From Cocleimonas sp. (lineage in GTDB: Bacteria; Pseudomonadota; Gammaproteobacteria; Thiotrichales; Thiotrichaceae): DNA of 64,000 nucleotides. The notes under the pieces are model-generated. The model had not been told where the DNA came from, did no database searches, and saw only the letters and a program-made list of their open reading frames with translations. Shown one piece after another: positions 4,326-51,891 of this stretch. The position numbers and the translations under genes are program-made. Numbering within the stretch: position 1 is the first letter of the stretch; every line of letters starts with the position of its first letter. The stretch spans positions 19,070 through 83,069 of the forward strand of contig JAKIUW010000008.1 in assembly GCA_021647365.1 (NCBI GenBank), written 5' to 3'.

Positions 4326-5657
4326 TTATTCAAATTCCATAGCTCTATAAATACGCCCCGCATTTTGCAAGGCAAGCTCATTAAAAGTATCCAAATGAGA
4401 GTAGTCTGATTGATCAATCTTGTAAGCTTCTTGTTCGCTACCATCATCTTCAAGAATTTTAGCCACTTGCTCGCGCATATAAACGAGATAATCCTTGGTG
4501 TATTTTGTTAGTTCGCCCATATCCGTGGTGGGAGCGCCATGACCGGGGATGACAATCTCAGGCTTGAGCGCTTCAAAGGCATCCCAAGTTTTAATCCAGC
4601 CTTCGGTATCGGTATGTTCCATGACGGGTAGTAGTCGTTGGCGGAAGGCTAAATCGCCTGAAATCATCAGTTTCTTTTTAGGTAGCCAGAGTGAAATGTC
4701 ACCTGGGCTATGTGCAGGCCCTAGGCGTAATAGCACGATATGTTCGCCACCCAGTTCAATCTCCATCTTATCTTCGAAAGTTTTATCAGCATAAGCGAGT
4801 GTGGTGTATTGAGATTTATCACGACGACCACGTTGCATCCGCTCTATTATTTGATCTCCATGTGCTTTCATCTCTTCAAGTGCATCAACGTGTGCGATAA
4901 CAGTTGCGCCTTGTTCTTGCCAGTAGTTTGTGCCGAGCATGGCGTGACCTTGGGCATTCTCCAATACAATATATTTTACAGGTTGATCGGTGATTTTTTT
5001 GATCTCTGTATGCAGGGCTTGAGCGAGTAAATAATTATCCCCAGCATTAAAAACCAGCACGCCTGATTTAGTAACAATAAAGGATAAATTGTTATTGTGG
5101 CCTGAGTTGGCATAAGTCGCTGGTGCCGTTGCACCAATAGCCGAGTAGACATTATCTTTTACCAGAACTGGCAAACTGTAGAGCATTGACTCAGGCGCTT
5201 TATCTGTGTGATTGATGGGCAGTTTCAATTCTTGCCATTTATTATAACCATCCGCGTAGTTTTTCACATTGGTATAGCCTAAATCCATCAGTGTTCGTGC
5301 TGCCAGTGGGCTGCGCTGATTTGTGCCGCAATAGACGATGATAGGCGTGTCTTTGGTTTTTACATGGCTTGCAACATCAAACTCCAACCAGCCACGTGGA
5401 ATATTGACATGTTCATCGGCATCAATCGAACCACCGATAAAATCAACCTCATTGGCGGTGCGTACATCGATTAATTCAATTTTAGGATTCTTTTTTAAGA
5501 GTGCTTGAAGCTCAGCTGTGTTGATATTGTTAATGGATTTATTGGCATCTTGAATGGCTTTTTCGCCAGCAGTTTGGGGTGGTTCTGCATGGCTGAATGT
5601 TGGTATTAGCATCGCTATGAATAAGGCATGTAAAAGTGGGGGGGTGTGAATTCTCAT
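4326..5657 (-). CDS. Secreted rhodanese domain + metallo-beta-lactamase-fold fusion protein
   Basis: Signal-peptide-like N-terminus ending FSHA, rhodanese loop VYCGTNQRS, C-terminal MBL-fold region (PGHGAPT). AGGAA lies 4 nt upstream of ATG 5657. Codons 4-10 are encoded by a repeat copy. Confidence 0.72.
   Translation of the reverse strand: MRIHTPPLLHALFIAMLIPTFSHAEPPQTAGEKAIQDANKSINNINTAELQALLKKNPKIELIDVRTANEVDFIGGSIDADEHVNIPRGWLEFDVASHVKTKDTPIIVYCGTNQRSPLAARTLMDLGYTNVKNYADGYNKWQELKLPINHTDKAPESMLYSLPVLVKDNVYSAIGATAPATYANSGHNNNLSFIVTKSGVLVFNAGDNYLLAQALHTEIKKITDQPVKYIVLENAQGHAMLGTNYWQEQGATVIAHVDALEEMKAHGDQIIERMQRGRRDKSQYTTLAYADKTFEDKMEIELGGEHIVLLRLGPAHSPGDISLWLPKKKLMISGDLAFRQRLLPVMEHTDTEGWIKTWDAFEALKPEIVIPGHGAPTTDMGELTKYTKDYLVYMREQVAKILEDDGSEQEAYKIDQSDYSHLDTFNELALQNAGRIYRAMEFE
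5627..5648 (+). repeat. G-tract repeat copy 4 (GTG, forward), inside CDS 4326..5657
   Basis: catgtaaaagtgggggggtgtg. Read on the minus strand as HTPPLLH, codons 4-10. Confidence 0.9.
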
Positions 5658-5682: not shown

Positions 5683-7245
5683 TTAAACTTTACTATAGTC
5701 TAAAAGCTTATTGGCAAGTGATTCAATTGACATATTAGTTTGTGCGCAGGAGTTTGCAGGTTTTGAGTGCCATATAAAATAATCAGAATGATCATCGTTG
5801 TAATCAGTTTTTTGATAAATATCGGGCATACTGGGAATGTGATCGCCATAGAAACAGAGCGTAGTTTCTCTGCTTGATTGTCGGTAATTATCCGTCAATG
5901 CTTTGATCATTTTATCCGCGTTTTTTAAGTGGCGCAGGTAGACGGTTAGATCGTTTAGGCCCCCCAATTTTGTATCAGAATAATATGTGCTTTGTTCTTG
6001 TTTGTTTGTTTTCTCAAGATGCAATGGACCGTGATTTTCCATAGTAATCGCAAATATAAACAAAGGCTTATCGGTTATTTGTTTTGTGATTTCAAGTATT
6101 TTGTCGGTAACGGCTTGATCGGAAATATAAGGGCCGGATTTTGTCGCGCCGTCAAAACTGCCAATATCAATAAACTCATCAAAACCTAGTTTAGGGAAGA
6201 GTTTGTCGCGTCCAAAAAAAGAGGCAGGATGAGGGTGGATGCACACGCAATAGTAGCCTTGAGATTGCAATGCTGAGGCGATGGAGCTGACGGGCATCTG
6301 ATGAATAAATTGATAAGGGTAGTAGCGATACAAACCCATATCTTGATATTTTAGCCCTGTTAGAAATGAGAACTCAGAGCGCATGGTATTGGCACCCCAT
6401 GCAGGGACTTTCAGTTTGCCATATTGTGCAGACTCGGCGTTACAGGCATCAAAGTTTTTTAGAATATCGGTTTTAATGGATGGATGTAAACGGCGCGCAT
6501 CAAAAAAGGATTCGCTTTGGATAACGGTGATATTGGGTTTGTCTTTATCTTTATCGCTTAGACCTTTATTAAAATCTGAATCCATCATGTAAAAGTGGGG
6601 GGGTGTGCTTTCAGTATTCTTATTCTGAGTAAAGAACGGTGATGATTGTAATGTTTGCACTATCTGTTGCTTATGCTCTTTGCTTCTTGCTTGTACCGTG
6701 TATGTGACAAGCGTGTTGATCAAGCCGTAGCGGGCGTTGTCTTCTGCAGGGTTGGCAGAAAGTTTGAGTTTTTCAGCGCTGTTTTTGATAAAGAATCCAA
6801 TGCCGATAATAGCCAGCAGAGATAGAAAAATACGTTTGGCAGTAAACGCCATCGCAGGTTCTAGCGTTAGCACGGCAATAATCAGCCCGATGATGATAAT
6901 GGGTGCGATGATGACAGGGGCTAATCCCAAAAAAGGAAAGTATAAGCGCGGGTGCTTAAAGGCTTGGGAGAACATTGCAAAATCAGAAAATACTATTGGC
7001 TCTTTAAGCGCTTTGAATTTCGCATTGCTTACAGCAATCACAATAATGAAAAACACCACAAGCGCAATGCCTGAGAAAATAGGGCGTTGCACAATTAATG
7101 TCAGCACTATAAATAATATGCTGATGATAGAAGCTTGTAATATCAAGGTGTTATTGCTGAAAGTTGCTTCTTTAGGTTTGCTAAATCGTTCTAGCCAGAT
7201 CGAGGCTGTAATAGTGAAAAATAAGGCGAATATAAACGTTAGCAT
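5683..7245 (-). CDS. LTA-synthase/sulfatase-family membrane transferase
   Basis: About 5 N-terminal TM helices followed by a sulfatase-fold domain (ITVIQSESFFDARR, TMENHGP, YGDHIPS). A repeat copy is read in-frame in the linker. Confidence 0.75.
   Translation of the reverse strand: MLTFIFALFFTITASIWLERFSKPKEATFSNNTLILQASIISILFIVLTLIVQRPIFSGIALVVFFIIVIAVSNAKFKALKEPIVFSDFAMFSQAFKHPRLYFPFLGLAPVIIAPIIIIGLIIAVLTLEPAMAFTAKRIFLSLLAIIGIGFFIKNSAEKLKLSANPAEDNARYGLINTLVTYTVQARSKEHKQQIVQTLQSSPFFTQNKNTESTPPHFYMMDSDFNKGLSDKDKDKPNITVIQSESFFDARRLHPSIKTDILKNFDACNAESAQYGKLKVPAWGANTMRSEFSFLTGLKYQDMGLYRYYPYQFIHQMPVSSIASALQSQGYYCVCIHPHPASFFGRDKLFPKLGFDEFIDIGSFDGATKSGPYISDQAVTDKILEITKQITDKPLFIFAITMENHGPLHLEKTNKQEQSTYYSDTKLGGLNDLTVYLRHLKNADKMIKALTDNYRQSSRETTLCFYGDHIPSMPDIYQKTDYNDDHSDYFIWHSKPANSCAQTNMSIESLANKLLDYSKV
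6583..6611 (+). repeat. G-tract repeat copy 5 (GTG, forward), inside CDS 5683..7245
   Basis: catcatgtaaaagtgggggggtgtgcttt. Read on the minus strand as STPPHFYMM. Confidence 0.9.
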
Positions 7246-11064: not shown

Positions 11065-12438
11065 TTACAATGGTATGGTTACAATGACGGTGGTGCCTTT
11101 TTCGGGTGCGGAATTAACAGTCATGTGACCTTCTAATAATTCTGCTCTATCAATCATATTGCGTAAGCCTAGACCACGATCTGGGTTGGTTTGATCAAGC
11201 GTTGTTTTATCAAAGCCTAAGCCATCATTACTGATACTTAACGTGACACGTTTGCGCATTTTATCAATCTTAAGAATAACATGATTTGCATTACGTGCGT
11301 GTTTTTCAATATTGGTTAATGCTTCTTGAATGATGCGGTAAAAAGCGGTTTCGACTTCTTGAGGAAGGCGTTGTTTTTGGCAATTGTTTTCTGTTGTTAC
11401 TTCAATATTATTACGTTTTGAAAAGTCACTGCTTAGGCTGTCAATCGCAGCAGAAAGTCCTAAATCATCCAGCAAAGTAGGGCGTAGGTCACGTGAAATA
11501 CGCCTGACCTCTTGTATGCTGGTGCTTAAAATTTCATCGGCATCATCAATCACGTGGCTAATTTCATCTTGTGGAGATTGCTTGAGTATTTTACTCTTAG
11601 CGTTATCTAGTTTGTAGCGTATTGAAACTAACAGTTGGTTGATGCCATCGTGCAATTCACGAGAAACACGTTTGCGCTCATCTTCTTGAAAGTTTACTGT
11701 TTTATGAGTGAGGTCGCGCATCTTTTGGTTGGCGAGTTTGCCTTCTGATAGATTGACGATAAAACCAATCAAGGCGATGAGTAGGGTGGCAGCAATGGCG
11801 ATCATTGAGGTGAGTAACAGCGTATTGGTGGTTGATGTTTTGGCTTTTTCTTTCATTGCGGTGACACCTTTTTCAATGTCGTCGATGTAGATACCAGTTC
11901 CAATCATCCAGTGCCATTTCTCCAAGCCGATAGAATAACTGAGTTTTTCAATGGACTTTCCCCCTGAGGGTTTATCCCACAAATAACGGGTATAGCCGCC
12001 ACCATCTTTAGCTTTTTCTATTAATTTTCGAATAAGGAATTTTCCATTATCATCTTGGAAATCAAATAGGTTTTTGCCTTCTAATTGAGGCTTGCGTGGA
12101 TGAACAATATTTACGCCACTGTAATCATAGACAAAGTAGTAGCCATCTTCGCCAAACTCCATGTTTTTGAGTGTGTCATAAACTTCTTGTTGCGCATGTT
12201 TTTTGTCAACGTGTTTGTTTTCGTAAACGCCTTTTATCGCGCTGTAAGCCAGATCCATATAGTTTTTTAATTCTTCTTTTTTTGTGGCTATTAATTGGTT
12301 TTCAAATGATTGAGTTTGCTTGCTGGCGAGCTGTTTGGTTTGGTAGGCCGTGCCAACGGCAATAGCGCTAATCGCCAATATTAAAGGGATTAGTGTAAGA
12401 AGCGCTATTTTTATTTTGTAAGGGAGTGCGGAGAACAT
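11065..12438 (-). CDS. Sensor histidine kinase, Cache sensor + HisKA_3 (NarX/LiaS type)
   Basis: TM, periplasmic Cache-like region (GYYFVYDYSGVNIVHP), TM, H-box ELHDGINQLL, HATPase_c (DGLGFD, GLGLRNM). Confidence 0.88.
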   Translation of the reverse strand: MFSALPYKIKIALLTLIPLILAISAIAVGTAYQTKQLASKQTQSFENQLIATKKEELKNYMDLAYSAIKGVYENKHVDKKHAQQEVYDTLKNMEFGEDGYYFVYDYSGVNIVHPRKPQLEGKNLFDFQDDNGKFLIRKLIEKAKDGGGYTRYLWDKPSGGKSIEKLSYSIGLEKWHWMIGTGIYIDDIEKGVTAMKEKAKTSTTNTLLLTSMIAIAATLLIALIGFIVNLSEGKLANQKMRDLTHKTVNFQEDERKRVSRELHDGINQLLVSIRYKLDNAKSKILKQSPQDEISHVIDDADEILSTSIQEVRRISRDLRPTLLDDLGLSAAIDSLSSDFSKRNNIEVTTENNCQKQRLPQEVETAFYRIIQEALTNIEKHARNANHVILKIDKMRKRVTLSISNDGLGFDKTTLDQTNPDRGLGLRNMIDRAELLEGHMTVNSAPEKGTTVIVTIPL

Positions 12439-12575: not shown

Positions 12576-12603
12576 AAGCACACCCCCCCACTTTTACAGG
12601 ATG
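12576..12603 (-). repeat. G-tract repeat copy 7a (GTG, reverse), left arm of a pair
   Basis: aagcacacccccccacttttacaggatg. Confidence 0.88.
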
Positions 12604-12619
12604 TTTTTTAGCGACAAAA

Positions 12620-12647
12620 CATGCTGTAAAAGTGGGGGAGTGTGTTT
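12620..12647 (+). repeat. G-tract repeat copy 7b (GTG, forward, degenerate G5AG)
   Basis: catgctgtaaaagtgggggagtgtgttt. Confidence 0.8.
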
Positions 12648-12691
12648 CGATAGTTCTCAGCAGAACTGCTTTGAAGTCGTGGTAAATAAGC

Positions 12692-26841: not shown

Positions 26842-26866
26842 TCATGTAAAAGTAGGGGGGTGTGAA
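26842..26866 (+). repeat. G-tract repeat copy 13a (GTA, forward), left arm of a perfect palindrome
   Basis: tcatgtaaaagtaggggggtgtgaa. Confidence 0.9.
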
Positions 26867-26891
26867 TTCACACCCCCCTACTTTTACATGA
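26867..26891 (-). repeat. G-tract repeat copy 13b (GTA, reverse), right arm of a perfect palindrome
   Basis: ttcacacccccctacttttacatga. Exact reverse complement of 13a, centred on gaattc. Confidence 0.9.
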
Positions 26892-26906
26892 CATAATCAG
26901 ATATAC

Positions 26907-26935
26907 AAAAAAGCCCCGCTAATGCGGGGCTTTTT
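26907..26935. terminator. Bidirectional intrinsic terminator between glnS and the csp gene
   Basis: A-run, agccccgc-taat-gcggggct, T-run. Confidence 0.8.
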
Positions 26936-26956
26936 ATTTGAAACTGTAGAGAGTTA

Positions 26957-27163
26957 TCAATCCCCAGCAGTCACATTAACAGCAGCGGGGCCTTTGGCGC
27001 CATCTTCTGTTTCAAAATTTACTTTCTGGCCTTCTTCTAAAGACTTATAGCCATCCATTTGGATTGAGTTGAAGTGAACGAATACATCGTCACTACCATC
27101 ATCTGGAGCAATAAAACCAAAACCTTTACTGCTGTTAAACCACTTAACTGTACCTGTTGCCAT
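26957..27163 (-). CDS. Cold-shock protein (CspA family)
   Basis: 68 aa, [15 protein letters not shown] and DVFVHF RNP motifs. Confidence 0.95.
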
Positions 27164-27340
27164 CCCTGGGAACCTCTTTAAAAATTAAAATAACGCAGAC
27201 TGATGCAAGAAAAAACGGAAGGCTACGTTAAACTGCCGAACTTCTTCAGAGGTTTTTTAGCAAGCCTCTGTAAAACTGCAACTGAAGAATATCATATTCT
27301 CAGAAAATTTCTAGGGGGAGGAGATAAGCTAAATTTATGT

Positions 27341-35551: not shown

Positions 35552-37915
35552 ATGCGCCTTTTTGCACTTTCCTTTTTGTTGGGTACGTTGATTATTCAAC
35601 AATTCCAACAACTTCCATCACTTATATGGATTGGGTTGTTTCTTGCGATTTCAATCTTTATGACCGTGTTTTTAAAGAAAAAATCCACGGCTTCCCTATT
35701 TAATTCATTATTGATTTCACTGAGCGCATTCCTAGCGGGATTGTTGCTATCAACTGCCGTTGCACAAAACCAATTACTCAAACAAATTCCAATGAAGTGG
35801 GAAGGGCAAGATATTATTTTGCAGGGAAAAGTGCTGGGCATACCTAATAAGAAAAATGACGGTACTCGTTTTCGATTGGAGATAAGTCAAGCCAGCCTCA
35901 AATCCACTCCGGAAGAAAGTATTGATCTCAAAGGCGTGGTCAGGTTGGGCTGGTTCCGAAGCACACAAAAGATCAATGCGGGCGAGGCTTGGCAACTCGT
36001 AGTGAGGATGAAACAACCCTCAGGTTTTTTAAACCCTGGCGGTTTTGATTATGAAAAATGGCTGTTCACCGAGCGCATCAGTGCGACAGGTTATATTCGA
36101 GAAGAGCGCAAAGGTGGCAAAAAATATAATAAGCGAGTGAGCAAATCGCCGTGGTGGTCAATTAATGGTTTGCGCCAGAGCATTCATAACAAGATCCAAA
36201 CAGGTGTTGAAGATAAAGCTTCCGCAGCCATACTCAGCGCCTTGGTGGTCGCGGTGCGTACTAAATTTGATGATGAGCAATGGAAGCTATTACAACAAAC
36301 AGGTACGAGTCACTTAGTCGCTATTTCAGGTTTGCATATAGCGGTGGTGGCAGGCTTTGCTTTCTTGCCCATTATGTTGATTTGGGGATTATTCCCCAGC
36401 CTAAATGAAAAGATGCCTCTGCGCGTGGCAGGTGCAATTGCTGGCGTAATTTTTGCGACACTGTATGCGATGTTGGCAGGCTTCACTTTGCCCACACAAC
36501 GCGCTTTGTTGATGGTGGTAATCGCCTTGCTGGGTTTATTGGTACGACGGAATTATCACAGCTCAACTATTTTGGCGGTGGTTGTCATTGCGGTGTTATT
36601 GCTTGATCCGCTTGCTGGGATGACGGTGAGCTTTTGGCTGTCATTTCTTGCGGTAGCTTTGATATTGGTGGTATTAAAACGCCAGATAGAAAAACCTGCT
36701 ATGCAGTTGATTAAATTACAAATTGCATTATCGCTTGGTATGTTGCCACTGACTTTATTCTTCTTTGGTAGCGCATCTTTGTTATCGCCTGTTGCAAATT
36801 TATTGGCGATTCCGTGGGTGTCGCTAGTGGTTGTACCATTGAGTTTGTTGGCGCTGGTGTTTATGCCCATTTCTACATTTATCTCTAATGGGCTTTTTAG
36901 TATTGCCGCCTTGGCGATCGAGTGGATGTTTTCAGGCTTTGAATTATTGAGTAGATCATCACTGGCAAACGTGAGCATTGCAGAAATCCCCAACCTTTAT
37001 TTACTAAGCGCCTTTGCAGGTTTTCTGTTTTTGTTATTACCCAAAGGATTTCCCGCGCGCTGGCTAGGGCTGGTTGCCATATTGCCCGCGCTATTATTTA
37101 CGGTAGAAAAACCCAAGCAGGGTGAATTTGTATTTACCTTGTTAGATGCAGGGCAGGGTATGGCTTCGGTTGTACAAACCGCAAATCACACTTTGATTTA
37201 CGATGTAGGAACACGCTACAGCAAAACCTACGATATAGGTAAGCTCGTCGTCGTACCGTTTCTAAAATCAAAGGATCTTATCAATGTTGATAGCATGATT
37301 TTGTCGCATAAGGATATTGATCATTGGGGCGGCACAGAGGCAGTCCTCAAAGAAATTACAGTAAAAAAGATAATAAGCAGTGATACGACGGTCTTAGAAA
37401 ACCACAAGGTATTTGAATGTATCAAAGATGATCAATGGCAATGGGATGGCGTAGATTTTAAAGTGTTATCCCCGCCCGAAGATTATCCGCAAAATGACAA
37501 TAACCGCTCCTGTGTATTGCGTGTATCCAATGCTAGTCATTCGTTATTGCTCACAGGCGATATTCAAAAGAAGACAGAAAAATTATTGCTAGCTTACGCC
37601 AATGAAGAAGAGAGCAATGAAGTAGAGAGTGATGTGCAATCAGAAGTCATCAGCGTACCGCATCACGGTAGTAAAACTTCATCGACAGAAGCATTCCTTC
37701 AAGCCGTATCACCCAAGTTAGCGTTGATACCCGCAGGGTATCGCAACCGATTTGGGCATCCTAAGGATAAGGTGCTAGCGCGTTATAAACGCATGGGGGT
37801 TGACGTTATGGGAACAGTAGAGAGCGGAGCGATCACGGTGAAATTTCCTGCTGATGAAGACGACTTTGAGGTAGAAGCGTATCGAGAAGAAAAGCGTAGG
37901 TTTTGGAGCCGTTGA
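35552..37915 (+). CDS. comEC: DNA internalisation competence protein ComEC/Rec2
   Basis: N-terminal OB/DUF4131 region, polytopic competence domain (GTSHLVAISGLHI), and C-terminal MBL domain (LSHKDIDHWGG, VPHHGSK). Confidence 0.92.
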   Translation: MRLFALSFLLGTLIIQQFQQLPSLIWIGLFLAISIFMTVFLKKKSTASLFNSLLISLSAFLAGLLLSTAVAQNQLLKQIPMKWEGQDIILQGKVLGIPNKKNDGTRFRLEISQASLKSTPEESIDLKGVVRLGWFRSTQKINAGEAWQLVVRMKQPSGFLNPGGFDYEKWLFTERISATGYIREERKGGKKYNKRVSKSPWWSINGLRQSIHNKIQTGVEDKASAAILSALVVAVRTKFDDEQWKLLQQTGTSHLVAISGLHIAVVAGFAFLPIMLIWGLFPSLNEKMPLRVAGAIAGVIFATLYAMLAGFTLPTQRALLMVVIALLGLLVRRNYHSSTILAVVVIAVLLLDPLAGMTVSFWLSFLAVALILVVLKRQIEKPAMQLIKLQIALSLGMLPLTLFFFGSASLLSPVANLLAIPWVSLVVVPLSLLALVFMPISTFISNGLFSIAALAIEWMFSGFELLSRSSLANVSIAEIPNLYLLSAFAGFLFLLLPKGFPARWLGLVAILPALLFTVEKPKQGEFVFTLLDAGQGMASVVQTANHTLIYDVGTRYSKTYDIGKLVVVPFLKSKDLINVDSMILSHKDIDHWGGTEAVLKEITVKKIISSDTTVLENHKVFECIKDDQWQWDGVDFKVLSPPEDYPQNDNNRSCVLRVSNASHSLLLTGDIQKKTEKLLLAYANEEESNEVESDVQSEVISVPHHGSKTSSTEAFLQAVSPKLALIPAGYRNRFGHPKDKVLARYKRMGVDVMGTVESGAITVKFPADEDDFEVEAYREEKRRFWSR

Positions 37916-37921
37916 TAAACA

Positions 37922-37948
37922 CTATGTAAAAGTGGGGGGGTGTGCTTT
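37922..37948 (+). repeat. G-tract repeat copy 17 (GTG, forward)
   Basis: ctatgtaaaagtgggggggtgtgcttt, 7 nt after the comEC stop. Confidence 0.88.
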
Positions 37949-42186: not shown

Positions 42187-42216
42187 CATCATGTAAAAGT
42201 GGGGGGGTGTGCTTTT
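42187..42216 (+). repeat. G-tract repeat copy 19 (GTG, forward); supplies the gluQ C-terminus and stop
   Basis: catcatgtaaaagtgggggggtgtgctttt. Minus strand reads K-A-H-P-P-T-F-T-TGA. Confidence 0.9.
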
Positions 42217-43214
42217 AAATACTCTTTAGATAACGGTAAGGTCATCACTTTAGGAATATTCCTAGCATCCCAGTTCTGTAAAGCCCATTGCCACACATCA
42301 TTAAGCGATAAAAAATCATTAGTATTTGGTGGTTGTTGCCCTAAAAAGGCTAGTGCGAAAATCAGCGTAGCGCGTTTTTGATCAGCTGATATTTCAGGCG
42401 AAAGATTCTGTTTGCTAAGCTTTTTACCAGCATCATCAACCGCCACAGGGAAATGTAAGTAGCTAGGTTGTGAATATCCTAGTAATCGTTGTAAGTAGAT
42501 TTGTCGAGGTGTGTTATCAAATAAATCAGCGCCACGTACCACTTCGGTTATACCTTGCAGGGCATCATCAACCACTACTGCAAGTTGATATGCCCACAAG
42601 CCATCCGTGCGTTTTAGAATGAAATCTCCCACTTCTTTGTTTATATTTTGGCAAAGCTCTTGAGGGTTATTTGCAGACCCTGTAAAAGTGGGGGGGTGTG
42701 CTTCGACAGGCTCAGCAGAACTGCTTTCCGTATTGTTAACTTGGCACTGGTCGATAAAGCAAACAGGCTTGTCATCCGTCAATATACGAATACTGTGATG
42801 TTTAGCGTCTTGATTTTTCATTCCTTCTCGGCAAAATCCAGGGTAAATATAAGAATAGCTTCCTGTCGATGCCATTAAAGATTTACGCGTACAGCTACAG
42901 GGGTAAACAAGCTCGCCGAGCGTATCAAGTGCATCTTGGTAATACTTGGAACGCTGACTTTGATAGATGATTTCGCCATCCCATTCAAAGTCATAAGATT
43001 CTAGTGAGCTAATAATGGATTGTGCAGCGCCTTTTTGTTCGCGTTGTGTATCGACGTCTTCAATGCGCAGTAGCCATTGTCCGCTTTTAGTTTTAGCACT
43101 GAGATAGCTAGCCGTGGCGGCAATCAAAGACCCGAAATGAAGCGGACCTGTGGGGGAGGGGGCAAAACGCCCGATGGTTTTTGTAGGTGAGGTTGATGAT
43201 AAAGTGTCAGACAT
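42189..43214 (-). CDS. gluQ: Glutamyl-Q tRNA(Asp) synthetase
   Basis: GRFAPSPTGPLHFGS, RIEDVD, AYQLAVVVDD, EVVRGADL, and KLSKQN. Downstream of dksA as in E. coli. Carries one internal in-frame repeat copy and ends inside another. Confidence 0.9.
   Translation of the reverse strand: MSDTLSSTSPTKTIGRFAPSPTGPLHFGSLIAATASYLSAKTKSGQWLLRIEDVDTQREQKGAAQSIISSLESYDFEWDGEIIYQSQRSKYYQDALDTLGELVYPCSCTRKSLMASTGSYSYIYPGFCREGMKNQDAKHHSIRILTDDKPVCFIDQCQVNNTESSSAEPVEAHPPTFTGSANNPQELCQNINKEVGDFILKRTDGLWAYQLAVVVDDALQGITEVVRGADLFDNTPRQIYLQRLLGYSQPSYLHFPVAVDDAGKKLSKQNLSPEISADQKRATLIFALAFLGQQPPNTNDFLSLNDVWQWALQNWDARNIPKVMTLPLSKEYLKAHPPTFT
42679..42703 (+). repeat. G-tract repeat copy 20 (GTG, forward), in-frame inside gluQ
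   Basis: cctgtaaaagtgggggggtgtgctt. Minus strand reads E-A-H-P-P-T-F-T-G. Confidence 0.9.
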
Positions 43215-43284
43215 AAAAAAGGAGTTTACTGTGAAACTCCTTTTAAAACATATTTTTCTCTAGTGAAAGTTTTCTAGATAAAAA

Positions 43285-43734
43285 TTAAGCAATTTGCTTC
43301 TCTTTAATTTCTTGTGTGGTTTTACAATCTATACACATTTCAGCCGTAGGGCGAACTTCTAAACGCTGTAAACCAATCTCAATGCCACAAGCATCACAAA
43401 ATCCATAGTCATCGGCGTCAACGCGGGCGATGGTTTTGTCAATTTTACGAACCAATTTACGCTCCCTGTCGCGTGCGCGAAGTTCAAGTGTGAACTCTTC
43501 TTCTTGCGTGGCGCGGTCAGCTGGGTCTGAGAAGCTGCTTGCTTCTTCTTGCATGTGGTCAACCGTGCGGTCAGCTTCTTCTAATAAAGACTTTTTCCAA
43601 GCAAGCAGAATACCTCTAAAATGAGCGAGTTGATCGTCATTCATGTACTCTTCGTTCTTTTTCGCCTCATAAGGCTCAATTCCGTCAACGGGAAGTGCGG
43701 ATTTACGAGTGATTGAAGTTTTAGCCGTAGTCAT
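43285..43734 (-). CDS. dksA: RNA polymerase-binding transcription factor DksA
   Basis: Coiled-coil with acidic tip (DPADRATQEEE) and a C4 zinc finger (CDACG...CIDC). Confidence 0.93.
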   Translation of the reverse strand: MTTAKTSITRKSALPVDGIEPYEAKKNEEYMNDDQLAHFRGILLAWKKSLLEEADRTVDHMQEEASSFSDPADRATQEEEFTLELRARDRERKLVRKIDKTIARVDADDYGFCDACGIEIGLQRLEVRPTAEMCIDCKTTQEIKEKQIA

Positions 43735-45995: not shown

Positions 45996-46070
45996 GCGGG
46001 AATAGCTCAGTGGTAGAGCATAACCTTGCCAAGGTTGGGGTCGGGAGTTCGAGTCTCCTTTCCCGCTCCA
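45996..46070 (+). tRNA. tRNA-Gly (GCC)
   Basis: 75-nt cloverleaf folded by hand. Acceptor gcgggaa/ttcccgc, anticodon loop ttGCCaa, T-loop ttcgagt, encoded CCA. Confidence 0.9.
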
Positions 46071-46142
46071 AATTTAGTGAACTTCCCATTTGTTTCTTTT
46101 CAAATGGTGAACTCAATTATGTCGCAGTTTTTTTGTGACGCT

Positions 46143-46172
46143 AAAAGCCGATCATTATTGATCGGCTTTTTT
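46143..46172 (+). terminator. Intrinsic terminator after tRNA-Gly
   Basis: aaaagccgatca-ttat-tgatcggctttt followed by TT. Confidence 0.75.
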
Positions 46173-46290
46173 GTGCGCGTTTTTGATGTAAATCAAAAGC
46201 ACTACTTATGAGTCCCTTTAGTTACTTTTATTCCTACCATTAATCTGGGATGAGTAGTTCTAAATAAGAATATTGATTATATTTTCTCTC

Positions 46291-46364
46291 GGCTGGGTGG
46301 CAGAGAGAATATGCAACGACCTGCAACGTCGATTACCTTGGTTCAATTCCAGGCCCAGCCTCCA
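46291..46364 (+). tRNA. tRNA-Cys (GCA)-like, structurally aberrant
   Basis: 74 nt. Acceptor ggctggg/cccagcc, discriminator T + CCA, anticodon loop ctGCAac. However, the D-loop (agagaat) lacks GG, the D-stem has 3 bp, and there is an A:A mismatch at the top of the anticodon stem. Confidence 0.55.
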
Positions 46365-49354: not shown

Positions 49355-49444
49355 GGAGAGGTGACTGAGTGGCCGAAAGTACCGGTTTTGAAAACCGGCG
49401 ACGGGTTAAACCGTCCCAGGGTTCGAATCCCTGCCTCTCCGCCA
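49355..49444 (+). tRNA. tRNA-Ser (UGA)
   Basis: 90-nt class II tRNA. Acceptor ggagagg/cctctcc, anticodon loop ttTGAaa, long variable arm, T-loop ttcgaat, CCA. Confidence 0.9.
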
Positions 49445-49920: not shown

Positions 49921-50887
49921 AAGCCGATACTAGTACTTTGTTACAACATCACGCTAGCAGCTCATTTACGCCAGATAATGATTTAAAGTAAATGTTTACC
50001 ATTTCATGGTTGGTGTGGAGAACAGTTAAGACTTTACAATATTGATAAGCCAAAAGAGAAAGGAGTAAAACAATACACCGATAAGCTTGTAGAAACTGTT
50101 ATTAATTCAACTGAAACAGGCCATATTGCCCAAAGGGCAATATGGCGCTATCATGATTGATGAAGGTCACGACTTTCAATCAAACTTATCTCAAGCATGA
50201 TTAACCCAGAGACTGATTCATTATTGTTACTCTATGACGATGCACAGTCACTCTACAATAAGAACAAGCTGTCTAGCGTTGTATTTTCAAGCAAGAGGTA
50301 GAACAACTATTCTACGTGTTAATTACCGCAATACCGATAAAATCATCAACATCGCCTACCGTTTTGCTGAAAAATATTTTAAAACCAAAGAAAGCGATGA
50401 AGATCATATTCCTTTAATCAGACCAAAAACAGGAGATCGAAAAGGAAAAGCGCCCTCTATAGGTTTATATGAAAATTTTAAAGAAGATAATTAAACGCAT
50501 TATTTTTTGTGTTTAATTATCTTCATAAAAGCCAAGGTTATGCTTGGTCGGATATGTGTATCACCTACCCGAAAAAATATTTAGGTGAAAAGATTCAACT
50601 TGCCTTATCAATGAAGGTATTCCCAGACAGTGGCCAAAGAACCCGCAACATAAAAAGCAATATGATTCGTCTGCATACTCTGTAACAATGCATAGTAGCA
50701 AAGGCTTAGAATTCCCCATTGTGCTGTTTCATGTGCGGGTATTCCGTCATACAAAAATGCTAAACAAGCGGATGAAGCAAAGCTTTTATATGTGGCTATG
50801 ACACGTTCTACTGACAAGTTATTAATTACTAATTATAAAGAAAGTGAGTTGTTTAATGAGCTTTCTGCAATAGAAAAAACGGACTAG
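49921..50887 (+). pseudogene. Superfamily-1 (UvrD-like) helicase remnant with multiple frameshifts
   Basis: Fragments in three frames: KPILVLCYNITLAAHLRQ, YGAIMIDEGHDFQ, LLYDDAQSLY, RTTILRVNYRNTDKI, HSSKGLEFPIV, and LLYVAMTRSTDKLLI. Confidence 0.75.
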
Positions 50888-50968
50888 AAATAGTTTAACC
50901 ATTGCGACAAGACAAACAAATTACTGTGATGGTGAATATACATGCTATTTATTTTTAACTCGAAATAA

Positions 50969-51055
50969 TGGTGCCCAGGGCCGGAATCGAACCGGCACGG
51001 TGTTGCCACCGAGGGATTTTAAGTCCCTTGCGTCTACCAATTTCGCCACCTGGGC
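50969..51055 (-). tRNA. tRNA-Leu (UAA)
   Basis: 87-nt class II tRNA on the minus strand. Acceptor gcccagg/cctgggc, anticodon loop ctTAAaa, CCA encoded. Confidence 0.88.
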
Positions 51056-51150
51056 ATATTACTTAGATGGTCTTTTTAAATATCATTTACAAACAATTCA
51101 AAAAAAGGTAGACAATTTTAAACTGTGCAGTTGTCTGCGGTTGTAAATAA

Positions 51151-51224
51151 TGGAGGCTGAGCCCGGAATCGAACCGGGCTAGGCGGTTTTGCAAACCGCT
51201 GCATAACCTCTTTGCTACTCAGCC
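51151..51224 (-). tRNA. tRNA-Cys (GCA), canonical
   Basis: 74 nt. Acceptor ggctgag/ctcagcc, D-loop with GG, anticodon loop ttGCAaa, discriminator T + CCA. Closely resembles E. coli tRNA-Cys as I remember it. Confidence 0.88.
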
Positions 51225-51311
51225 CCACAAGGCGCGGAATAATAGCATCAAAGTTAAATATTAGGAAAGGATTTTACACGATTTATTTTGTACTAATAAA
51301 AAGCCCCTTCA

Positions 51312-51891
51312 AAGCATCTGTTTCGCTTTAAGAATCCTTTGTATTCTTTAGATGCCAGTGCTATTAATTTATCAATAAAGCTCTTTCCTTGGGCTTTACA
51401 CCAACCCTCTGCCGCGAATGTAAAGTTAAGTGTTGGTCTCAATCATGGCAACATGCTTCCTGAGTTTGTAGCGTTAAGTGATGGCAATGAAAACGATAGA
51501 ATCCAAGGACGGAAGTTTGATTTTCCCGCTGGTAGCATTGCAGCTTTTGATAAAACCTATCAGTTTTTAACTGAACAATTTTAAACTCTGTGCAGCTACA
51601 ATAACCTCGATCTATAAAGATCGTTGGCAAGTAGAATTGTTCTTTAAAGCGATCAAACAAAACCTCAAGATTCACGCCTTTGTGGGTGTTTCTCGCAATG
51701 CTGTTATGACACAGATATGGATTGCCATGATCACCTGTTTGTTATTAGCCTATGCTCGTCATAGTGCTCAAACAGGCTGGACTGTACAAAGGATATTAAG
51801 GGTAATTCAGCTCAATTTATTTGAGAGAAAGAGCCTGCGAGAAATTTTAATTCCTGATCCTCCTAGGCATAAAAAGGAGGTGCCTAGATGA
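51312..51891 (+). pseudogene. IS4-family DDE transposase remnant (N-terminally truncated, internal deletion)
   Basis: YSLDASAINLSIKLFPWA...VKLSVGLNH..LPEFVALSDG..FDK, then a break, then TSIYKDRWQVELFFKAIKQNLKI (the Y-2-R-3-E-6-K region). Confidence 0.75.

Follow-up and report, generated by a model that had tools for sequence, protein, structure and literature searches.

Probable in-frame capture of a genus-specific interspersed repeat in the gluQ gene of Cocleimonas, with a second copy supplying the stop codon

REP sequences which are read inside proteins are uncommon. In Rickettsia, the RPEs constitute in-frame insertions in protein-coding genes (Ogata et al. 2000, summarised in PMC10969869), and DNA-uptake sequences of the USS type arise by point mutation without gaps, the gap test of Redfield et al. 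showing that they are not insertions (PMC1626085). The gene considered here encodes GluQRS, a paralogue of GluRS which modifies tRNA-Asp and is dispensable in both E. coli and Shigella, and the dksA-terminator-gluQ-rs layout of Shigella is matched by the arrangement in the Cocleimonas DNA that we describe (PMC3542578).

We analysed a 64-kb stretch of DNA (the window), taken from a metagenome-assembled genome (MAG) of Cocleimonas. From comparison of its sequence with those of relatives, the gluQ gene in this window very probably carries an old in-frame insertion which derives from a genus-specific short interspersed repeat, with a second copy of the repeat supplying the stop codon. The gene and its upstream neighbourhood comprise the following features:

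42189..43214, minus strand: gluQ coding sequence (GluQRS, 341 aa), a single intact ORF (PF00749; structures 1nzj and 4a91; alignment residues; dN/dS)
43217..43244, minus strand: terminator-like hairpin between dksA and gluQ, with the gluQ ATG directly after it
43285..43734, minus strand: dksA, the conserved upstream neighbour of gluQ (Pfam DksA_N and zf-dskA_traR)

The only Pfam match of the gluQ product is PF00749 (1.3e-40), and its closest solved relatives, both by sequence and by fold, are the E. coli YadB/GluQRS entries 1nzj and 4a91 (E 6e-26 for the fold match of the predicted model with 4a91). As is typical of GluQRS, with about 300 aa, the 341-aa product consists of a GluRS-type class I catalytic domain and has no anticodon-binding domain. 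The signature residues H26-F-G-S29 (HxGS) and K264-K-L-S-K-Q269 (KLSKQ), and the Cys/Tyr zinc site (C106, C108, Y124 and C128), are invariant in our orthologue alignment (A1), and the gene is located downstream of dksA, a synteny which is the same in L001, L002, L004, L059-L061 and L065. One homologue, P0001, is 100% identical to the GluQRS of the window, although looking up the exact protein sequence returned no record.

Within the reading frame, the following features were assigned:

42660..42740, minus strand: lineage-specific insert of 27 codons, V159-Q185, VNNTESSSAEPVEAHPPTFTGSANNPQ, which corresponds to a gap in E. coli and in orthologues from P0008 outward, and has low pLDDT
42681..42701, minus strand: internal copy of the repeat core, GCACACCCCCCCACTTTTACA, with the translation A-H-P-P-T-F-T; the next codon is GGG where the repeat has TGA (repeat matching)
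42702..42728, minus strand: accessory module of 27 nt, GAAAGCAGTTCTGCTGAGCCTGTCGAA, directly 5' of the core (codons ESSSAEPVE), present among gluQ genes in the window lineage only

A sequence-only reading of this DNA had proposed that gluQ contains one repeat copy translated as EAHPPTFTG, and that its frame closes within a second copy, where KAHPPTFT is followed by TGA. This is indeed what the single ORF contains, and the positions given were right to within 2-5 nt. The two cores are in identical register (GCA CAC CCC CCC ACT TTT ACA), as had also been pointed out, but this agreement is uninformative: its prior is one in three, and since only that frame contains the TGA of the repeat, any copy donating a stop must be in it. 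The peptide across the insert is ...PVEAHPPTFTGSAN..., and the insert is embedded in the protein as ...DQCQ VNNTESSSAEPVEAHPPTFTGSANNPQ ELCQN.... The extra segment noticed earlier has no counterpart in E. coli GluQRS, with the alignment broken at query residues 156-196 (E. coli 145-159), and the actual insert is 27 residues long. No Cocleimonas orthologue with about 74% identity or less has it either, the nearest of these being P0008; altogether, more than 20 orthologues, E. coli and P0008 among them, are without it. The insert is present, and always open, in the eight nearest lineages (including P0002-P0007 and L014), where it is larger than the repeat unit and measures 81 nt in the window versus 54-60 nt in the relatives.

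The 27-nt module is missing from the other seven gluQ inserts, and also adjoins repeat cores outside gluQ, both in the window (12656-12672) and in L025, L066 and L067. While the flanks of the insert differ in length and sequence among lineages, the nucleotide sequence of the core hardly changes across all eight. The codon following it is GGG, TGG, TCA, GCA or CGC depending on the lineage, and TGA in none. The earlier suggestion that an element-borne stop has been lost from the internal copy is right in that GGG follows the core in the window; with some intergenic copies carrying GCATG, TCATG or GGATG in place of TGATG, a stop lost after insertion and insertion of a copy already free of the stop cannot be told apart.

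Selection was suggested to have kept the insertion open, and all comparisons agree with this: the frame is intact in 8/8 insert-bearing lineages, the outgroups are without the insert, and dN/dS versus insert-bearing relatives is 0.13-0.24 at dS 0.54-1.3, by which measure gluQ is under purifying selection. We found neither the insert in orthologues lacking the repeat family nor a frameshift making the gene a pseudogene, either of which would have spoken against repeat insertion into a functional gene. It is conceivable in principle that gluQ is a pseudogene or an assembly artefact, created where contigs were joined at repeats, since the source is a MAG and the C7 homopolymer in the frame could slip. 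The same arrangement is however found in eight independent assemblies (NCBI, ENA and JGI), the repeat is about 30 nt and hence shorter than sequencing reads, and the eight open frames have dN/dS well below 1, and we give this explanation virtually no credence.

The AlphaFold prediction puts residues 161-183 at pLDDT <50, between strands at 150-155 and 186-190, which agrees with the surface loop envisaged from sequence alone, although the model is middling (mean pLDDT 71) and low confidence is to be expected for any lineage-specific segment. In this model the insert is likely a disordered surface loop. This bears on the question whether the HPPTF peptide is itself kept for a function in GluQRS, for instance a contact with tRNA or a partner, so that its likeness to the repeat would reflect origin only. 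The peptide is invariant in 8/8 insert-bearing lineages and the rest of the insert varies, as would suit a functional peptide, but disorder is predicted for the segment, P0006 tolerates another insertion, of 20 residues, which splits the repeat directly after HPPTF, orthologues without the segment retain all catalytic residues, and other proteins use the same DNA in two further frames and from the opposite strand. Moreover, selection on the peptide leaves the invariant synonymous positions unexplained: 4/5 fourfold-degenerate third positions of the core are invariant in the eight lineages, versus 7/55 elsewhere in gluQ (p about 0.001, our own binomial estimate). We consider a peptide function very improbable as the reason for this conservation. 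What keeps the core inside gluQ constant would rather act at the level of the DNA, and could be either homogenisation among repeat copies or recognition of their sequence.

The 3' end of gluQ is formed by the second copy of the repeat:

42192..42215, minus strand: terminal repeat copy, read as K334-T341 (KAHPPTFT), with its core at 42192-42212 (repeat matching and ORF)
42189..42191, minus strand: TGA stop codon of gluQ, provided by the repeat, whose consensus 3' flank is TGATG

The product ends with ...SKEYLKAHPPTFT and then TGA, its C-terminal peptide being ...YLKAHPPTFT, and residues 336-341 again have pLDDT <50. The terminal copy lies 470 nt from the internal one. In P0002 the copy at the 3' site is in sense orientation and its TGA is now CGA, in P0005, P0006 and P0007 it is antisense and the proteins end in CKSGGVCF, L004 and L065 have their own repeat variant at this site, and P0004 has no repeat there. 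Alignment of orthologues had been expected to show both the insert and the C-terminal residues to be lineage-specific; this applies to the insert, confined to the eight nearest lineages, whereas the C-terminal copy occupies an old site, with the relatives having it in either orientation. Repeats have long occupied the intergenic spacer directly behind gluQ.

In the window the repeat has the consensus aAA-GCACACCCCCC[C/T]A[C/G]TTTTACA-TGATGtTT, and 165 copies pooled from the window and other Cocleimonas contigs gave aAA-GCACACCCCCCcAcTTTTACA-TGATGtTT as the consensus of the unit, which is about 30 nt long and nearly always intergenic. There are 27 copies in the 64 kb at up to 3 mismatches, versus 0.00 expected from 100 shuffles, and 28 at up to 4, which amounts to about 1 per 2.3 kb. 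A third of the pooled copies (54/165) belong to inverted pairs; the 28 pairs, of which 24 are arranged '+-', have a modal spacing of 27-29 nt. These doublets form hairpins of 70-80 nt which fold at -36 to -52 kcal/mol (z-scores -10 to -12), as exemplified by the following pair, which folds at -52.5 kcal/mol (z-score -11.5):

12578..12672: intergenic inverted repeat pair, 12578-12598 on the plus strand and 12625-12645 on the minus strand, plus the 5' module at 12656-12672

Single units fold no better than shuffled sequence, and this includes the two gluQ copies, with z-scores of +0.8 and -0.9. The consensus of 111 single copies has neither terminal inverted repeats nor a duplicated flank that is conserved, and comparing filled with empty sites at the internal and 3' sites of gluQ revealed no clear target duplication. 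The 23 repeat-flanked ORFs in about 400 kb, inspected by eye, all look like housekeeping genes, with no transposase, RAYT or other mobilising gene among them. At gathering thresholds Rfam has no family for the repeat, a scan of viral contigs returned no copies, and our literature search yielded nothing on Cocleimonas repeats and nothing useful on the orientation of REP sequences. The genome scan for the repeat gave, among the matches listed, essentially one other Cocleimonas MAG. At permissive Rfam thresholds there were sub-threshold matches to microRNA precursors for the hairpin, which are generic and meaningless, and this identity was rejected. A role as promoter, translation signal or terminator tied to individual genes was likewise rejected, since single copies keep their strand whatever the strand of the flanking gene and are without structure.

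Related genomes have at least six species-specific variants ("dialects") of the repeat, which share a conserved C-run core between A and T tracts, and copies at the same site in different species follow each genome's own variant. In the window, where the leading strand was set independently by GC skew and by KOPS (8:1), the G-rich strand of the repeat is the leading strand for 19/21 single copies. Contigs with other repeat variants share this bias, which amounts to only about 2:1 in contigs of other species (41:22 and 22:10), and we do not claim a strict rule. Octamer-like sub-words resembling Chi or KOPS are few outside full copies (for example GGGTGTG 9:1 and GTGGGGG 5:0) and are probably decayed copies.

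These properties raise the question whether the repeat is an uptake-type sequence (USS- or DUS-like), kept by biased uptake and recombination, in which case the gluQ copies would be ordinary uptake sequences with no origin in a mobile element. The density, the species variants with their C-run core and A and T tracts which same-site copies follow, the conservation of the core at the nucleotide level within a coding region, the terminator-like inverted pairs as known for Neisseria DUS, and the absence of pattern matches in viral contigs are all consistent with this. There is also a comEC gene in the window (35552-37915), although ComEC is widespread and its presence says little. To our knowledge, orientation with the replication strand is not a property of USS or DUS, whereas single copies in the window are oriented 19:2. 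Furthermore, the repeat does not pass the gap test, with the gluQ copy lying in a gap of 18-27 residues relative to orthologues and the copy in P0036 gluQ also in a gap, and the 27-nt module and the doublets with fixed spacing resemble copied units. Finally, the Cocleimonas copies are almost all intergenic, versus 65% of the H. influenzae USS being located in genes (PMC1626085). On balance we consider an uptake sequence an unlikely explanation for the gluQ copies.

The strand bias could alternatively mean that the repeat is a polar chromosome signal which is read by a co-evolving protein, such as a Chi or KOPS analogue or the site of a nucleoid or termination factor, with the copy inside gluQ being needed at that position. 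The G-rich strand leading in 19/21 singles with the same tendency for other variants, the conservation of the core at synonymous sites, and the occupancy of sites kept across species with variants tracking the genome would all fit. Known polar signals are, however, 5-8 nt long and mostly located in genes, whereas the unit here has about 30 nt and is rarely found in genes, its polarity is only about 2:1 in the other contigs, and no candidate reader protein was found. There is also no evident spacing need for a copy within gluQ, as another is only 470 nt away at the 3' end. We regard this explanation as still less probable than uptake.

More broadly, the repeat may, as we would only tentatively suggest, be more than selfish DNA and serve as a signal throughout the genome with polarity relative to replication, which either resembles uptake sequences or has a co-evolving protein as its reader. 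Selection at the nucleotide level or molecular drive would then be strong enough to hold the 21-nt core unchanged in coding sequence over dS 0.5-1.3 and to rewrite same-site copies, protein linkers included, to the variant of the species. If so, loops of GluQRS, LTA synthase, RecB and TrmO would be partly dictated by a DNA-level code.

In-frame reading of the repeat is not limited to gluQ. The window contains a second in-frame copy:

6588..6608, minus strand: repeat copy with the translation STPPHFYMM, located in the linker of a protein of the LTA-synthase family (ORF 5683-7245; repeat matching)

The Sulfatase domain of this protein begins at residue 237, just past the copy, and homologues have PPxF variants at the equivalent spot, or none. 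Common descent of the LTA-synthase linker copies cannot be argued from a shared frame, as the C-run starts at codon position 1 for the window and for L062, but at position 2 for L063 and L064. The STPPHFYMM frame is also used in RecB linkers, TrmO has the repeat read as HVKVGGC, and both truA and a 5'-3' exonuclease gene end in the repeat, as KAHPPTFT(L) followed by a stop. The gluQ gene of P0036 shows an independent second event, in which an antisense copy of that species' own repeat variant is located in a different loop, again in a gap.

The history of gluQ which these comparisons show starts with a segment of about 54-60 nt, containing one repeat unit, which an ancestor shared by at least eight of the lineages sampled acquired in a short and likely surface-exposed loop of the zinc-binding insertion domain. 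Purifying selection on GluQRS continued, and the insert has remained open in every lineage. In the lineage of the window, the 27-nt module which elsewhere accompanies the repeat was added in frame beside the core, and loss of the original gluQ stop extended the reading frame by about 14 codons into the repeat, ending at the TGA of TGATG. Both the insert and the tail would be translated. The insert was presumably tolerated because it forms an unstructured surface peptide rich in Pro, Thr and Gly, and because GluQRS is dispensable enough for the gene to have survived the insertion; the enzyme was described as essential-type in the sequence-only reading, which is contradicted by its dispensability in E. 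coli and Shigella (PMC3542578), and a transient knock-out on insertion would thus have been survivable. The repeat may spread by copying, our best guess being that, like REP/REPIN elements, it is mobilised in single-stranded form at replication forks; insertional gaps, doublets and strand polarity would all follow from this. A simple copy-and-paste model does not predict that same-site copies carry each genome's own variant, an observation that counts against such a model.

In-frame capture of repeats is one of the few documented bacterial routes to new peptide segments in old enzymes, and good cases outside Rickettsia are scarce. For gluQ the polarity of the change is clear, with outgroups lacking the insert and eight lineages having it, and the gene records several steps: a second independent hit, a secondary in-frame addition, and a neighbouring copy redefining the C-terminus. 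Of greater interest, perhaps, is the repeat family itself, as it is very dense, non-palindromic as a unit, replication-polar in the window and conserved at synonymous positions within a gene, and has variants that diverge while sites are kept. Should an uptake receptor, a single-strand transposase, a polar DNA-binding protein or some other recognition system be behind it, Cocleimonas could be tractable for the study of both repeat maintenance and protein constraint, because C. flava has been cultured.

Compared with described systems, the repeat shares single features with each. As with Chi and KOPS, there is a strand skew with replication in the window, weaker elsewhere, but those are short motifs of 5-8 nt found throughout coding DNA, whereas the Cocleimonas unit is about 30 nt and occurs almost only in spacers. 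The Correia/NEMIS elements of Neisseria, ERIC, the MIRU of mycobacteria and MITEs such as Nezha resemble it in that repeats abutting genes can supply stops or starts and so alter termini, as in gluQ, truA and the 5'-3' exonuclease gene; Correia elements and MITEs have terminal inverted repeats with target-site duplications and MIRU are oriented with transcription, and the Cocleimonas repeat has neither property. With the USS of Pasteurellaceae and the DUS of Neisseriaceae it shares its density, lineage variants, flanking A/T tracts, terminator-like pairs, recurrent in-gene peptides and long-term stability of sites, but differs in that its gluQ copy fills an insertion gap, that genes are largely free of it and that its orientation is polar, whereas most USS are located in genes (PMC1626085). 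Much of its architecture is that of REP/REPIN sequences, which are mobilised by RAYT (Y1 HUH) transposases, whose genes the repeats usually flank: both are short, extragenic and species-specific, are found singly or in inverted doublets with a short fixed spacer that form long hairpins, and have long-lived sites. The REP unit is, however, an imperfect palindrome with a conserved 5' tetranucleotide, whereas the Cocleimonas unit has no hairpin, and none of the 23 repeat-flanked ORFs in about 400 kb, as inspected by eye, looks like a Y1 transposase. Being without a hairpin, terminal inverted repeats or a visible target duplication, the single unit fits the definitions of neither REP nor MITE. In its effect on proteins the repeat is closest to the RPEs (PMC10969869): in both, a dispersed non-coding repeat is found in frame in unrelated housekeeping genes, gives a short peptide compatible with the fold and is kept across relatives, here in gluQ of eight lineages and furthermore in LTA synthase, RecB and TrmO. 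RPEs are about 100-150 bp, palindromic and often intragenic, whereas the Cocleimonas unit is about 30 nt, non-palindromic with palindromes formed only by intergenic doublets, almost always intergenic, strand-polar and divided into species variants. The kind of event recorded in gluQ is already known, and the repeat family behind it is undescribed and has unusual properties.

The gluQ gene of the window is a single open frame of 341 codons, whose product has PF00749 (class I Glu/Gln tRNA-synthetase catalytic domain, 1.3e-40) as its sole Pfam match and E. coli YadB/GluQRS (1nzj, 4a91) as the closest solved structures by both sequence and predicted fold; a 100% identical protein is on record from a Cocleimonas sp. 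MAG (99,916-bp contig). The gene follows dksA and a terminator-like hairpin (arms AAAAGGAGTTT...AAACTCCTTTT, then a T run), with the gluQ ATG immediately after it, and the same dksA-terminator-gluQ-rs layout is found in Shigella, where it is reported to control gluQ-rs expression (PMC3542578). Five tRNA genes (45996-46361, 49355-49441 and 50972-51224) and several short ORFs (50234-51891) were noted in this region. The features in and around gluQ are as follows:

43285-43734: dksA, directly upstream of gluQ
43217-43244, minus strand: terminator-like hairpin between dksA and gluQ
42189-43214, minus strand: gluQ (GluQRS)
42702-42728: 27-nt module GAAAGCAGTTCTGCTGAGCCTGTCGAA, directly 5' of the internal core, inside gluQ
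42681-42701, minus strand: internal repeat core GCACACCCCCCCACTTTTACA, next codon GGG
42192-42212, minus strand: terminal repeat core GCACACCCCCCCACTTTTACA, next codon TGA
42189-42191, minus strand: gluQ stop codon TGA, supplied by the terminal repeat copy

Both cores are read as GCA CAC CCC CCC ACT TTT ACA, and checking the two positions and the GGG/TGA difference in the sequence confirmed the observation of the sequence-only reading, that gluQ reads through one repeat copy and takes its stop codon from another. The identical frame of the two copies, also pointed out there, is correct but carries little evidential weight, since the repeat's TGA occurs in that frame only, so that any copy supplying the stop is bound to use it, and the prior chance of the internal copy sharing it was 1 in 3. 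Likewise, the internal copy does lack the TGA that it was proposed to have lost, but this TGA follows the internal core in none of the eight lineages with an insert-bearing gluQ (GGG in the window, TGG in P0002, P0003, P0005 and P0006, TCA in P0004, GCA in L014 and CGC in P0007), and some intergenic copies have GCATG, TCATG or GGATG instead of TGATG. Removal of a stop codon after insertion and insertion of a stop-free copy would both be viable routes, given that E. coli and Shigella can do without GluQRS (PMC3542578), a finding which does not bear out the earlier description as an 'essential-type enzyme'.

In a 29-orthologue GluQRS alignment (A1), P0008 and all more distant sequences (≤74% identity) have a gap in place of the 27-residue insert V159-Q185 (42660-42740). 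The alignment with E. coli breaks at the insert too, residue 156 of the query being paired with E. coli residue 145 and residue 196 with residue 159, in agreement with the proposed lineage-specific origin of the extra segment. Shorter inserts of 18-20 codons are present in P0002-P0007, the six closest homologues (73-82% identity), and in L014, a further species found by DNA scan, with the exception of P0006, where a further 60-nt in-frame insertion (SELTVLPFKTDNSIIRAPAV, L001:10511-10600) separates TTT from ACA in the in-gene repeat and brings the insert to 38 codons; a small hairpin-like stretch (CCGTTTTGCCGTTTAAAACGG) lies inside this insertion. The module accounts for the 27 nt by which the window insert exceeds the others, and its addition, at nine codons, kept the reading frame. 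Every version of the insert includes (A/T/G)HPPTF. All eight insert-bearing genes are intact, and dN/dS between the window gluQ and its insert-bearing relatives is 0.13-0.24 at a dS of 0.54-1.3, which shows that the insertion is old, that gluQ has stayed functional and that selection has kept the insertion open, as had been suggested. In an AlphaFold model built from A1 (mean pLDDT 71, pTM 0.73), insert residues 161-183 form a low-confidence stretch (pLDDT <50) between strands 150-155 and 186-190, and the repeat-coded tail (residues 336-341) likewise has pLDDT <50.

While the insert flanks vary in length and sequence among the lineages, the core is almost unchanged. Four of the five fourfold-degenerate third positions in the core are invariant across the eight lineages, compared with 7/55 (12.7%) elsewhere in gluQ (p ~0.001, binomial estimate), and four of the five HPPTF codons are identical in all of seven lineages, compared with 27.6% of conserved-residue codons elsewhere. 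This points to a constraint that would act at the nucleotides, and not on the peptide alone. Such conservation agrees with the main rival explanation, in which the repeat is an uptake-sequence-like signal, as do the density of the repeat, its variants and the stability of its sites, although the gluQ copy fails the published USS gap test (PMC1626085).

With regard to the 3' end of gluQ, the protein of P0008 (L004), the nearest relative without the insert, ends in ...PKVMTLAIA followed by the stop codon, with the genome's own repeat variant AAAAGTACACCCCCTATTTTAG located 8 nt further on. In the window and in P0002 translation runs on into a sense repeat copy, with the TGA in P0002 replaced by CGA and the stop two codons on, while an antisense copy forms the gluQ end in P0005, P0006 and P0007 (CK[ST]GGV[CS]F). 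P0003 seems to have a deletion derivative at this end and P0004 no repeat copy at all, and P0036 (L065) has a sense copy of its own variant directly after the stop codon. The presence of sense, antisense, own-variant or no copies among relatives shows that the post-gluQ spacer is an old repeat site, at which the window lineage lost the native stop codon, substituted the repeat's TGA and added a variable, low-confidence tail. Together the data show a course of events in which repeat-bearing DNA inserted into a GluQRS loop, the insert was then retained with the enzyme under purifying selection, and the copy in the 3' spacer was recruited later as the gluQ end; the original interpretation is supported, with the corrections described.

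Repeats read within genes are a general phenomenon in the genus Cocleimonas, with in-frame copies occurring in loops and linkers. The copies in the RecB, TrmO, truA and exonuclease genes are from loci L046:554-5179, L015:5209-6042 and L045:2753-3595:

6588-6608, in minus-strand ORF 5683-7245 of the window: STPPHFYMM in an LTA-synthase-family linker, in another frame than in gluQ
RecB-type protein, another Cocleimonas MAG: STPPHFYMM in the helicase-nuclease linker
TrmO, another Cocleimonas MAG: HVKVGGC, antisense reading
truA end, another Cocleimonas MAG: KAHPPTFTL, then stop
5'-3' exonuclease gene end, another Cocleimonas MAG: KAHPPTFT, then stop
L065:623-1684, gluQ of P0036: antisense in-frame KNRGCVLV in a different loop, independent of the window insert

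The LTA-synthase-family copy lies just before the Sulfatase domain (from residue 237), in the linker that joins this domain to the membrane part, and homologues with 60% identity either have PPxF variants like their own genome's repeat or lack the segment. The KNRGCVLV copy is the same variant as the copy just past the P0036 gluQ stop. In-frame copies would be tolerated because the unit, as read from its sequence, has four open frames out of six, and its C/G run gives Pro-Pro or Gly-Gly, suited to loops and linkers. A further copy (5629-5649), in the 25-nt spacer that follows the LTA-synthase gene, falls in the start region of minus-strand ORF 4326-5657; if the longest ORF is real (its start codon is uncertain), this copy encodes MRIHTPPLLH, possibly a signal peptide, as the N-terminus of a rhodanese/metallo-beta-lactamase protein. 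L064 likewise has a repeat copy, at 11613, in the orthologous spacer.

Related genomes have differing repeat versions built around a conserved C-run: ATGGCACCCCCCCTTTTTTACA in L062, ACCACCCCCCTTATTTTTACA in L063, GACACCCCCCACCTTTTTGCC in L064, GTACACCCCCTATTTTAG in L004 and AGCACACATCCCCTRTTTT in L065. The LTA-synthase linker copy resembles its own genome's intergenic copies, also in bases beyond the C-run, and copies in the spacers after the LTA-synthase gene and after gluQ likewise track their own genome's variant. As the C-run reading frame in the linker varies among lineages, the tracking would be compatible with co-evolution of the copies in place and equally with their repeated re-insertion at permissive sites.

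The window contains 27 core matches at ≤3 mismatches (0.00 expected) and 28 at ≤4 mismatches, and 165 copies pooled across the window and further Cocleimonas contigs gave a conserved unit of ~30 nt, aAA-GCACACCCCCC[C/T]A[C/G]TTTTACA-TGATGtTT, with three main middle variants (CCAC in 96 copies, CTAG in 40 and CTAC in 23). About a third of the copies (54/165) are in inverted pairs, the majority '+-' with cores 27-29 nt apart, which form long hairpins (-36 to -52 kcal/mol, z-scores -10 to -12); folding of single copies, including both in gluQ, gave no structure. The module recurs at 12656-12672 in the window, L025:2341-2366, L066:1385-1411 (conserved beside a different repeat variant) and L067 ~937-1010 (tandemly duplicated), in every listed case directly 5' of a core. 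Repeat copies also adjoin other features: a tight inverted pair (26845-26888) lies next to a cspA thermoregulator Rfam match (26905-27303, minus strand, 116.7 bits, above the gathering score), and a copy at 37925-37945 lies immediately past the stop of a ComEC-type competence gene (35552-37915, plus strand; Pfam Competence, DUF4131, Lactamase_B), which likewise has an adjacent copy in L001. A perfect copy was found on L040 (DQTL01000057.1), a 3.3-kb contig of a Lutibacter sp. MAG (Bacteroidota bin) which is probably mis-binned. No repeat copies were found in a scan of viral contigs, no matching family in an Rfam search, and no mention of the repeat in the literature.

Almost every copy is intergenic, and window copies keep the same strand beside plus- and minus-strand genes alike. 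Two independent measures, GC skew (positive throughout) and KOPS (GGGNAGGG, 8:1), identify the plus strand as leading in the window, and 19/21 single copies have the G-rich repeat strand on the leading strand (p = 2e-4); on short contigs from a different species, for which the leading strand is no more than a guess, polarity is ~2:1 (41:22 by skew, 22:10 by KOPS). An uptake-like signal leaves this polarity and the avoidance of genes unexplained. We favour spread of the family by REP/REPIN-type copying on single-stranded DNA at the fork, which would account for the insertional gaps, fixed-spacing doublets, extragenic bias, species-specific sequence and strand polarity, although no RAYT gene was found among 23 repeat-flanked ORFs (~400 kb, judged by eye).

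The chief value of these findings is an undescribed repeat family, together with nucleotide-level constraint on its in-gene copies. The insertion in gluQ is the same kind of event as that described for Rickettsia palindromic elements (PMC10969869), and MITE-, ERIC- and Correia-type elements alter gene ends in the same kind of event. Unlike the REP unit, which has a hairpin, the Cocleimonas unit has none, and since at least one defining feature of each tested class is missing, the family falls outside the RPE, REP, MITE, USS/DUS and Chi/KOPS classes as each is defined.
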